Shown: positions 20,733 through 24,759 of the stretch, one piece after another
How positions within the stretch are numbered: the first letter of the stretch is position 1
How the letters are laid out: each line of letters begins with the position of its first letter
Origin: a virus
Taxonomy: Duplodnaviria; Heunggongvirae; Uroviricota; Caudoviricetes
Reading direction: 5' to 3' (one strand)
DNA length: 24,759 bases
Virus record (IMG/VR): IMGVR_UViG_2537561689_000015
Position numbers and translations under genes: made by a program
Notes under the pieces: model-generated
What the model was told of the DNA's origin: nothing
The model's input: the letters and a program-made list of their open reading frames with translations, nothing else
Databases searched by the model: none

Positions 20733-21560
20733 ATGGGTTTTTCATCAGCCCGAAATTTGGGAAGGGACATATCGGCAGGATTTTCCCCACCACGTCGCAT
20801 GCCGATTTCGGAGGCTGTTAAAAAATTCATGCGTGTTCCCAAGGGGGCTGGTAACTCGGTGCCATGGGATCCTGAACTGACACCCTACATCATTGAGCCC
20901 ATGAACTGCCTGGCATCGCGTGAATACGATGCGGTGATTTTTGTTGGTCCTGCGCGAACAGGGAAGACCATTGGTCTGATCGATGGATGGATTGTCTATA
21001 CCATCGTTTGCGATCCTTCGGACATGCTCGTTGTGCAGATGACCGAAGATAAGGCCCGCGAGCATTCTAAAAAGCGCCTCGACAGAACGTTCAGAAGCAG
21101 TGCGGCGGTAAAGAAAAGAATGAGTCCACGTCGTAACGACAATAATGTCCATGATAAGACGTTCAGGGATGGCTCGTTCCTTAAAATTGGTTGGCCCTCG
21201 GTCAACATTATGTCGTCGTCGGATTACCGGTTTGTCGCCTTAACCGATTACGACCGTTTTCCGGAGAATATCGACAGCGAGGGTGATGGTTTCTCCCTGG
21301 CCTCAAAACGTACCACCACATTTATGTCCGCCGGGATGACTCTGGTGGAGAGCTCGCCGGGACGTGACATCTGCGACAGCAAATGGCGACGTAAGTCGCC
21401 TCATGAAGCGCCACCGACGACTGGTATTCTTTCCCTTTACAATCGTGGTGACCGCCGCCGCTGGTACTGGCCATGTCCGCACTGCGGTGAATATTTTCAG
21501 CCAGCCATGGATGCCATGACCGGCTACCGTAATGAACCGGATCCCTTTAAAGCCAGGTAA
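20733..21560 (+). pseudogene. Terminase large subunit, N-terminal fragment truncated by IS insertion
   Basis: ATG preceded by AGGAGG. P-loop-like FVGPARTGKT and a CPHCGE zinc motif. The frame ends at a TAA created by the first bases of the IS element (GTAAGCG). Confidence 0.8.
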
Positions 21561-21586
21561 GCGACTCGTCAGAACCGTATTGATAT

Positions 21587-23158
21587 TTACTGAGAGCTCA
21601 GATCAACTTTCCAGGGCAACAGATCGCGTACCCGGTTTGCCGGCCAGTCCTGGATATGTTCAATGACGTAACGCAGCCACTTTTCTGGCTCCACATTGTT
21701 CAGACGGCATGTGCCGATCAGCGAGTACAACACCGCCGCATGTTCACCACCGCTGTCGGAACCCGCGAACATCCAGTTTTTCCGGCCTACGGCCACTCCC
21801 CGTAAGGCGTTCTCTGCGATGTTGTTGTCGATTTCCACCCAGCCATTACTGCAGTACACGTTCAGTGCATCCCACTGTTTCAGCAGGTATGCGAACGCTT
21901 TTGCCGTATCTGAGTGACGCGACAGTGTTTTCATCTGTTGCTGTATCCAGTCATACAGTGACTGCATCAGTGGCGCGGCTCTGGCTTTTCTTGCCGCCAG
22001 ACGCTGTTCTGCTGAACAGCACCGGACCTCTGCCTCGATGGCATACAGTTCACCGATACGCTGCAGGGCTTCCGTGGTGATGTAGGTGGGCGCTCTTGCA
22101 TGCACATCGTGGATTTTTCTCCGGGCATGAGCCATACACGCGGCTTCCGTTATTCTGCCGGATTCGTATAACGCCCGGTAACCACCGTAAGCATCGGCCT
22201 GAAGCACACCGCTGTAACCGGCCAGGTGATTTTGTGGATGGATACCTTTCCGGTCCGGACTGTACGCGAACCAGACCGCCGGGGGCATCTGTGAACCGGC
22301 GTTACGGTCATCACGGACGTAGACCCACAGCCGGGCTGTCCGGGTTTTACCGCTGCCCGGCTCCTGGACCGGGACGGGGATATCATCAGCATGGACTTTA
22401 CCGGGCATCAGCACATACTGGCGCAGGACGTCATACAGCGGCTCCAGTAGTTCAGCAACGGCACCTGTCCAGCGCCCCAGTGTGGCACGGCTCAGCTCCA
22501 CACCCTGACGGCGGTATATCTCTGACTGGCGGTATAACGGCAGATGGTCTGCATATTTCCCGGTGACGACATGGGCCAGGAGCCCCGCTCCGGCATAACT
22601 GCGTGCAATGGGTTTTGAAGGTACTGGTGCCTGCACGATATGGTCGCACCGACAACAGGCCAGTTTCGGACGTTGTGTTTCGATAACCTTAAAGGCGCTG
22701 CTGATAAGCTCCAGTTGCTCTGACACATCACATCCCAGAGAACTGAGTTCACCACCACAGGCAGGACAGCATTCCTCTTCCGGCCGGATAACCCGGGTTT
22801 CACGGGAAAGTGAGGCCGGTAACGGTTTACGGGCTGAAGACTGGCGCAGGGCGGATGGCAGTACCGGGTCATATTGCTCACCCAGCGTTTCCGCCATTTC
22901 TTCCTGAAGTGCGCTGATTCGCTCCTGTGCTTCCTGTATCTGCCGTTCGGTTTTTGCACGAAGTTTTTCTGAGCTTTTACCGAACTGCATACGTTGCAGT
23001 TTCGCAACCAGCGCCTTCAGCCGGTTGATTTCGGAAGCATAAGCCGCCACCCGCTGTGAGAGCAGGCGGTTGTATTCAGCCATCTGGCGTATGGTGTCCT
23101 GTTGCGTCTGCAACAGTGCCCGCAGGCGGGCGTTCTCATGAGCAAGTGAGGTGTCCAT
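21587..23158 (-). CDS. tnpC: IS66-family transposase (TnpC/Orf3)
   Basis: 523 aa with an N-terminal coiled-coil or leucine-zipper region and a Cys-rich zinc motif (CPACGG...CCRC), the typical size and layout for IS66 transposases. Confidence 0.9.
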
Positions 23159-23177
23159 ATCCTCACTTTACAACGGG

Positions 23178-23525
23178 TTATATGCGGATTCCAGCGCGTT
23201 CCGTTCGTTTCGGGTGCTTCCAGTTGATACCTTCAAGAAGCATGGATAACTGAGCCGGAGTAAGGTGCACCTTGCCGTCACGGGTGACTGGCCAGACGAA
23301 GCGGCCCCGCTCCAGGCGTTTGGTGAAGAGGCACAGTCCGTCACTGTCAGCCCACAACACTTTTATCTGGTCACCCCGGCGTCCGCGGAAGATGAACAGG
23401 TGTCCGGAGAACGGGTCATCCTTCAGGACGTTCTGAACTTTTGATGCCAGGCCGTTAAAGCCATTTCGCATATCGGTGATACCTGCAACCAGCCAGATAC
23501 GCGAACCTGCAGGGAGAGATATCAT
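23178..23525 (-). CDS. tnpB: IS66-family accessory protein TnpB (Orf2)
   Basis: 115 aa, between the Orf1 and transposase genes. The sequence MISLPAGSRIWLVAGITDMRNGFNGL is characteristic of IS66 Orf2. Confidence 0.9.
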   Translation of the reverse strand: MISLPAGSRIWLVAGITDMRNGFNGLASKVQNVLKDDPFSGHLFIFRGRRGDQIKVLWADSDGLCLFTKRLERGRFVWPVTRDGKVHLTPAQLSMLLEGINWKHPKRTERAGIRI

Positions 23526-24202
23526 CAGTGGCTGCTCCCTTTTATTTCGCGGATAAGTGTCTGTAATAACGCCGGCGTCAGTTTACCTTTAAGCCTGAGA
23601 GTTCCGGCCGGCAGAACCAGCTCACAACACAGACTGTCGGACGGTGTATTTATCTGCTCTGGTTCCTGTGCGGGGGCCGGGATTTTATTATCCGGCTCCG
23701 GCGTTAACGTCACGGGAAGCAGTGCCGGCATATTTTTTCCGGAAGGCAGCAGGCCACCTTTCCGGTATTGATGGCGCCAGTTGAAGAGCAGGTTATCGTT
23801 GATTCCGTTTTCCCGGGCGATCTGCGCCACACAGGCTCCGGGCTGCAGTGACTGCTCCACTAAGGCGATTTTAAACTCATAAGGGAAGTTGGGCCGCCGG
23901 GGACGTTTTTTTACCACGGGGGCTTCGGATATAACGGTGCTTTCAGGACGTACGACTGGTACCGTGGAAAATTGTCCGTAAAGGCAGGCATCAAGTTCCT
24001 GCTCCGACATGCCTGCGGGCAAAGGCCACGAAAGGCCAGCTCTCCGAAAGCGCACGAACATACTACAAACAGTTGATTTTGGTACACCCAGGCGACGCCC
24101 GGCCACAACCCGGGGTAAATGTTCTTCAAAGTGAAGACGTAAAGCTTCAGTGATCCAGGTCCGGTGTTTCATACGATAGTGTCCATTAAAAATGATGGAC
24201 AT
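23525..24202 (-). CDS. tnpA: IS66-family accessory protein TnpA (Orf1); start uncertain
   Basis: Track ORF of 225 aa; the true start may be internal (for example the ATG at 24172). HTH-like region. Its stop overlaps the TnpB start. Confidence 0.75.
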   Translation of the reverse strand: MSIIFNGHYRMKHRTWITEALRLHFEEHLPRVVAGRRLGVPKSTVCSMFVRFRRAGLSWPLPAGMSEQELDACLYGQFSTVPVVRPESTVISEAPVVKKRPRRPNFPYEFKIALVEQSLQPGACVAQIARENGINDNLLFNWRHQYRKGGLLPSGKNMPALLPVTLTPEPDNKIPAPAQEPEQINTPSDSLCCELVLPAGTLRLKGKLTPALLQTLIREIKGSSH

Positions 24203-24254
24203 TATTTTTGTAGAGCCGGAGGAAACAGACCAGACGGTTTAAATGAGCCGGTTA

Positions 24255-24759
24255 CAAAGCCAGTGAGGCGGCGTATCTACTTTGCCCGCACTGCAGCGGC
24301 ATTATCACTGCGGAGAAAAAGCGTGAGCTCAATAGTGCAGGAGTCTGGTTGCGTGAAGGGCAGGTCATTGATCGTAACGGCAACGTTTCCGGTGAACCGC
24401 GCCGCTCCCGTATCGCCAGTTTCTGGATGGAAGGGCCAGCTGCTGCGTATCAGACCTGGGCGCAACTGGTTTACAAATTACTGACTGCAGAACAGGAGTA
24501 TGAAGCGACAGGAAGCGAAGAAACACTCAGGGCGGTTATCAACACCGACTGGGGATTGCCTTATCTTCCTCGTGCCAGCATGGAGCAACGAAAAAGTGAA
24601 TTGCTTGAGCAGCGGGCAGAGCCAGTTCCTTCCCGCAGTGTGCCGGATGGCGTTAATTTCCTTGTGGCGACAGTGGATGTGCAGGCGGGACGTCATCGCC
24701 GTTTTGTGGTTCAGGTAACGGGCTATGGCAGCCGTGGCGAACGCTGGATTATTGATCGT
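24255..24759 (+). pseudogene. Terminase large subunit, continuation after the IS insertion (runs off the window end)
   Basis: Hand translation in the same codon phase as the N-terminal fragment gives KASEAAYLLCPHCSGIITAEKKRELNSAGVWLREGQ... The IS plus one duplication copy is 2706 bp, a multiple of 3. A second CPHC motif parallels the lambda gpA double-Cys region. Confidence 0.75.

Follow-up and report, generated by a model that had tools for sequence, protein, structure and literature searches.

The window, the 24,759-nucleotide stretch of viral DNA recorded as IMG/VR entry IMGVR_UViG_2537561689_000015, belongs to a lambdoid prophage in which the gene for the terminase large subunit (terL) is split by a complete insertion sequence (IS) of the IS66 family, ISCro1. 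Its host is a clone of enterotoxigenic Escherichia coli (ETEC), in whose chromosome the prophage lies beside potC. In our judgement, the explanation that best covers the whole is that ISCro1 transposed into terL of this prophage and that self-packaging was lost, and we consider it highly likely. The disrupted gene, the element and the target-site duplication of 8 base pairs (bp) are arranged as given below. This target site is empty in the phage Tritos and in the ETEC strain E1779.

20733..21556, plus strand: 5' fragment of terL, codons 1-274 plus two bases; the open reading frame (ORF) continues to a TAA in the IS; RefSeq pseudogene, 'missing C-terminus'.
21549-21556, no strand: left copy of the target-site duplication, AAAGCCAG, 8 bp; single copy at the empty sites in Tritos and E1779.
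21557..24255, minus strand: ISCro1, complete, 2,699 bp; its genes are antisense to terL; many E. coli copies match it over 1-2699 at 99.9% identity.
24256-24263, no strand: right copy of the target-site duplication, AAAGCCAG, 8 bp, a perfect repeat of the left copy.
24264..24759, plus strand: 3' fragment of terL, codon 275 onward, extending past the window; the restored translation is open.

The terL ORF at 20733-21560 ends in ...DPFKAR*, and its stop codon, TAA at 21558-21560, consists of bases 2-4 of the IS left end, GTAAGCG, as a sequence-only reading of this DNA had proposed. The left AAAGCCAG is followed by the start of the IS, GTAAGCGACTCG. The IS ends at 24255 with ...GAGCCGGTTAC, after which the right AAAGCCAG follows and the terminase resumes. 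The 8-bp direct repeat that had been noticed at both junctions was found at 21549-21556 and 24256-24263. Since the second copy ends at 24263, the end coordinate first assigned to the interruption, 24262, was one base short. The ends of the element at 21557 and 24255 are fixed independently of the repeat, because an independent copy in E1779 aligns over exactly 1-2699 and has unrelated flanks. With the ends fixed in this way, the probability that the flanks match at 8/8 positions by chance is 4^-8 (about 1.5e-5).

We found that deletion of 21557-24263, that is, of the IS and one copy of the repeat, gave an open frame of 1,320 nucleotides that was stop-free to the window end and read ...DPFKASEAAYLLCPHCSG... 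across the restored junction. The frame is therefore restored as had been predicted. The IS and one repeat together measure 2,707 bp, and because 2707 mod 3 = 1, the downstream piece of terL is shifted by +1 in absolute coordinates, so that a ribosome reading through the TAA would not return to the terminase frame. The earlier statement that the gene resumes in the same codon phase is thus correct relative to the repeat but not in absolute coordinates. In the source genome, the 3' fragment runs for about 790 bp beyond the window to a normal stop. RefSeq labels it as a pseudogene, 'terminase gpA endonuclease subunit, missing N-terminus', and the adaptor and portal genes follow. The event is a single, simple transposition of ISCro1 into terL, in which the usual 8-bp target duplication was made.

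The state before the insertion was examined at empty sites. Restored DNA of terL and the small subunit gene (terS) aligned to Tritos (OV696610) without gaps over 1868/1868 nucleotides with 8 mismatches (99.57%), and Tritos contains one AAAGCCAG. The flanks, for which alignment to an intact homologue had been suggested, are therefore continuous against Tritos terL. Tritos and the phage cdtI (AB285204 / NC_009514) show 99.3-99.6% nucleotide identity to the restored window in terS-terL, with cdtI at 99.3%. The order cos-terS-terL-adaptor-portal is the same in Tritos as in the window prophage. However, terL is uninterrupted in both phages, and their other modules differ from those of the window prophage. 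In these two comparisons, 41% of a 4.6-kilobase query was covered, the IS accounting for the remainder.

The same prophage is present in E1779, the reference genome of ETEC lineage L5 (LR883006; von Mentzer et al. 2021, PMC8085198), where it is identical over 22,052 bp and lies at the same site beside potC. E1779 showed 0 mismatches to window positions 1-21556 and 24256-24759, and the two matches overlapped by exactly the 8-bp repeat. The target site at codon 274 is empty in E1779, and the matching stretch equals the window minus 2,707 bp. An uninterrupted terL junction was also found at an identity of at least 99% in 735 E. coli genome records.

The inserted element carries three intact genes.

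21587..23158, minus strand: tnpC, DDE transposase, 523 amino acids (aa), intact; Pfam LZ_Tnp_IS66, zf-IS66, DDE_Tnp_IS66 (E = 3e-103) and DDE_Tnp_IS66_C; WP_001743889.1.
23178..23525, minus strand: tnpB, IS66 accessory protein, 115 aa, intact; Pfam TnpB_IS66, E = 4.7e-40; WP_000624622.1.
23525..24202, minus strand: tnpA, IS66 accessory protein, 225 aa, intact; Pfam HTH_Tnp_1 and HTH_23; WP_001339397.1.

The gene set of the IS66 family is therefore complete, with tnpA, tnpB and tnpC consecutive and tightly packed on the minus strand. The name ISCro1 is the label 'IS66-like element ISCro1 family' that RefSeq and the Prokaryotic Genome Annotation Pipeline (PGAP) give to full-length copies with 99.9% identity; the label is found in thousands of E. 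coli records. The terminal inverted repeats, GTAAGCGACTCGTCAGAACCGT and GTAACCGGCTCATTTAAACCGT, are imperfect and identical at 16/22 positions. IS66 elements reportedly have imperfect inverted repeats of about 20-30 bp that begin with 5'-GTAA. A target duplication of 8 bp is given for IS66 in a passage of PMC6778807 that cites Machida 1984. Here, AAAGCCAG stands on both sides of the element and occurs as a single copy at two independent empty sites. ISCro1 was first named in Citrobacter rodentium ICC168, which has 24 copies (PMC3072379), and it shares with the window copy the length of 2,699 bp, the order tnpA-tnpB-tnpC, the 8-bp duplication and the GTAA ends. We found no structural difference between the window copy and ISCro1 at large; it is one more copy at a particular site. 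Some match to ISCro1 was present in 3,018 of the 5,426 complete genomes, and at least 80% of the element was covered in 1,493. Copies occupy 7-10 chromosomal places per genome. Both ends of the window copy are intact. The multiple near-identical copies per genome and the presence of two different insertions in one prophage, the second of which is described below for E1779, imply recent activity of ISCro1, as judged from these sequence comparisons.

The whole window gave a full-length megablast match of 100.0% in five complete ETEC chromosomes, namely 504237 from India, ETEC-2265 from Bangladesh, 120899 and 103605 from Gambia, and 204446 from Mali. The top-scoring match was 504237, at 100.0% in one piece. 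The junction between the IS and terL was 100% identical over 600 bp in these five assemblies, and it was not found beyond the five carriers in the collection searched. Because the insertion is common to five isolates from four countries, it predates the spread of a clone. By these comparisons, the insertion dates to the interval between the separation from the E1779 line and the divergence of the five isolates. The event is clean and evolutionarily young, and at least five sequenced isolates have inherited it by descent. The description of the insertion as recent is in agreement with the flanks, which show 0 changes from the empty site in E1779, and with the perfect repeat, but has to be qualified by its sharing among five isolates from four countries. 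The junction cleanly marks a single ETEC sub-lineage of global distribution and can serve as a clonal marker for it.

Since ISCro1 is repeated at 7-10 places per genome and repeats can mislead assemblers, we considered whether the IS had been misplaced into the terminase during assembly of its repeated copies, or whether the window itself is an artefact. However, the junction is identical in five independently assembled complete genomes, and a perfect 8-bp duplication is the signature of real transposition and not of misjoining. An artefact was rejected on these grounds, and its probability is close to nil. Public RefSeq annotation already records both halves of terL as pseudogenes flanking ISCro1. 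No paper mentioning the insertion was found in searches on ISCro1, E1779 and ETEC prophages.

Full-length TerL, rebuilt from the identical prophage of E1779, has 699 aa. In the restored protein, Pfam placed GpA_ATPase (PF05876) at 40-303 (E = 5e-81) and GpA_nuclease (PF20454) at 325-643 (E = 2e-85). This two-domain GpA architecture is present in the restored polypeptide but not in the gene as it stands, which ends after residue 275. Restored TerL showed 99.4% amino-acid identity to the Tritos terminase, with 699/699 aa aligned end to end, and no solved structure was found for it by sequence search. The gene lies between the small subunit gene and the adaptor and portal genes and adjoins cos. 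Together with the RefSeq label of the element, the Pfam domains and the restored GpA protein bear out the original identification of a terminase large subunit interrupted by an IS66-family element.

The break after codon 274 falls within the GpA_ATPase domain, between two CxxC pairs (CPHCG...CPHCSG). The truncated product consists of 274 native TerL residues plus Arg. It retains the Walker A and B region, but its ATPase domain is cut short at the end, and nothing of the nuclease domain or the C-terminus is left. An enzyme could in principle be formed from two parts, the N-terminal fragment of 275 aa and a C-terminal fragment whose translation would restart at an in-frame TTG at 24349 (restored codon 303). 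This codon has AGGAG five bases upstream, and the product of such a restart would hold the whole nuclease domain, 325-643. However, the break is within the ATPase domain, and neither fragment would contain residues 275-302. No functional split gpA-type terminase is known to us, which also counts against a split enzyme. We regard this reading as very unlikely.

Two further features bear on packaging.

20197..20724, plus strand: terminase small subunit gene (Nu1 position, DUF1441), intact; Pfam DUF1441, E = 1.8e-44; annotated 'Terminase small subunit' in Tritos; an intact coding sequence in RefSeq.
20001..20012, plus strand: putative cos cleavage site, GGGCGGGAGCGT; base 1 of the linear Tritos genome is the equivalent of window position 20001.

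At the putative cos, homology to Tritos continues without a break from the right end of its linear genome into the left end. GGGCGGGAGCGT resembles lambda cosN (GGGCGGCGACCT), and this likeness, together with the deposited Tritos termini, points to GGGCGGGAGCGT as the cohesive end. The packaging site of the disabled prophage appears intact.

The remaining genes of the prophage were examined in the RefSeq annotation of 504237. Upstream of the split terL, the series begins with integrase, excisionase, exonuclease, dicB, a CI-like repressor, Cro, YdaT and replication genes, continues with hokD, a Doc toxin, RusA, a DUF1133 protein, a DNA methyltransferase and three tRNAs, and ends with holins, endolysin and the small terminase subunit. 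Downstream are the adaptor, portal, a protease/capsid fusion, tail genes, J, Lom and tail fibres. From integrase to the tail-fibre genes, the two pieces of terL are the only RefSeq pseudogenes in 504237, and ETEC-2265 shows the same picture. The head and tail genes downstream of the window are annotated as intact, and the regulatory, replication and lysis modules, which the sequence-only reading took to be kept, are likewise intact in RefSeq. A second terminase within the prophage, which would have spoken against the proposed defect, was not annotated between integrase and the tail-fibre genes in either 504237 or ETEC-2265. As annotated, the region is an integrated lambdoid organisation with a single disrupted essential gene.

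In lambda, mutants of the A gene show neither cos cleavage nor DNA packaging. From this known role of gpA and the truncation in the ATPase domain, we infer that the prophage is unable to package itself. Without functional TerL, its own cos would not be cut, and its own DNA would be neither translocated nor packaged. The other modules would be kept, namely integration, immunity, replication, lysis, head, tail, cos and the small subunit. As lambdoid phages transcribe their late genes with antitermination, and the genes for lysis, head and tail are retained here, induction would probably still kill the cell, and lysis would probably occur with release of empty heads and tails and without infectious particles. 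Rescue could come in trans, through a terminase of matching specificity, or from the IS itself, which might on rare occasions excise precisely. That prophages become cryptic when an IS inactivates their genes is textbook knowledge, and the present case is an ordinary one, with a known IS, a known type of terminase and the standard disarming of a prophage by an IS. It matters little beyond bookkeeping. A prophage-calling tool that scored the region as 'intact' would misjudge its capacity for phage production. The first observation is confirmed, and its interpretation is supported with minor corrections to the end coordinate, the absolute frame, the sense of 'recent' and the predicted nature of the defect.

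Several points limit this explanation. A query of the small subunit gene and the 5' part of terL matched by megablast at 2-3 places in the four carrier genomes other than 504237, that is, at one or two extra loci, and an intact close copy of the terminase at these loci could supply the enzyme in trans. In 504237, the query matched at one place only, but megablast misses terminases below about 80% DNA identity, and other lambdoid terminases may exist in that genome. In addition, the finding of no other defect in the prophage comes from PGAP pseudogene flags, which are blind to missense and regulatory lesions.

The prophage may accordingly be read as conditionally defective, its DNA being packaged when a co-resident or superinfecting lambdoid phage gives a compatible large subunit, so that mobility is changed and not ended. 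Because cos, the small subunit and the head and tail genes are kept, packaging in trans would still be possible. The cos region and the small subunit gene are intact, with 99% identity to their Tritos counterparts, a near-identical terL is widespread in the 735 genome records mentioned above, and the extra loci in 4/5 carrier genomes also favour this reading. However, 504237, the best-matching genome, shows the interrupted locus only, and in the other four genomes the additional matching loci may have diverged or be defective too. There is a precedent in Sp4 of E. coli O157:H7 Sakai, in which nu1 is disrupted by an IS and the DNA is packaged nonetheless (Asadulghani et al. 2009, PMC2669165). 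It has been reported that Sp4 DNA is most likely packaged by the terminase of Sp14, and that the cos sites are nearly identical (PMC2669165). As in the present case, Sp4 is a lambdoid prophage of a pathogenic E. coli with an IS in a gene of the packaging enzyme and with cos kept. In contrast, it is the small subunit that is disrupted in Sp4, which has further defects, whereas the large subunit is disrupted in the window prophage and the rest is annotated as intact. Packaging by the terminase of a neighbouring prophage was shown experimentally for Sp4, whereas for the window prophage it would be a prediction. We consider a conditional defect of this kind possible but unlikely, and loss of self-packaging through a single insertion is still the preferred explanation.

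A separate copy of ISCro1 was found in the same terL in E1779 (NZ_LR883006.1; 2108-4806 in the reverse-complement of the retrieved stretch), in the opposite orientation. This copy has 13 mismatches to the window copy and its own 8-bp duplication, TGTTAAAA. It lies at codon 678, with 21 codons of terL left ahead of the stop. In place of the last 21 residues, the annotated protein of 682 aa ends in SNRLI, which is encoded by the IS. The tail gene U of the E1779 prophage differs as well, as it has an internal stop.

The identical prophage was thus hit twice independently, once at codon 274 (the five-strain clone) and once at codon 678 (E1779). These two hits in terL of the potC-adjacent prophage of lineage L5 would be two losses of terminase function and might reflect selection, or a target preference of ISCro1, and not chance. 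Selection would fit lysogens that keep the cargo of the prophage (dicB, hokD, the Doc toxin, Lom and tRNAs) without phage production. However, there are two events only, and they were noticed after the fact. Enrichment in IS is a general trait of prophages, which tolerate insertions; in C. rodentium, more than half of the IS copies are on mobile elements (PMC3072379). The two target sequences are unrelated. Nor is the site a general hotspot, as most of the surrounding 600 bp is lacking in at most 63 of the 1,758 genomes that have this terL. The chance that some prophage gene is hit in both lineages, by a rough estimate, is not small. We therefore regard selection or preference as improbable, although the paired hits offer a small, testable case of prophages disarmed while their cargo is kept.

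The paper on the ETEC reference genomes describes prophages by PHASTER class, with only 'intact' for E1779, and does not mention the terminase (PMC8085198). The E1779 prophage Pph_7 is reported to carry dicB and dicC (PMC8085198). If Pph_7 is this prophage, it was scored as intact despite a terL truncated by an IS and a stop in gene U.

A hit in the ETEC strain TW10590 was rejected as another insertion in this terminase, as ISCro1 there has entered the immunity region of another prophage, which lies beside ompW and has a different terminase. In this related mosaic prophage (NZ_CP035850.1; retrieved-stretch 10386-13001, 14654-16620), ISEc62 also splits a replication gene. IS hits in ETEC lambdoid prophages therefore recur and are not confined to terL.

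The window also holds genes that may affect the host, at the following window coordinates.

4170-4358: dicB, encoding a cell-division inhibitor.
11534-11689: hokD, encoding a type I toxin.
12103-12588: Doc-family toxin gene, of the death-on-curing family.

Further cargo consists of ydfC and of Lom, the latter downstream and outside the window. This cargo could favour retention of the prophage after packaging is lost. Three tRNA genes are located at 17128-17377 of the window, between the DNA methyltransferase and holin genes. Clusters of tRNA genes ahead of the late genes are typical of lambdoid phages of pathogenic E. coli. ARAGORN assigned the three genes to Met(CAT), Arg(TCG) and Arg(TCT); the first is tRNA-Ile in RefSeq, presumably the lysidine-modified CAT isoacceptor.

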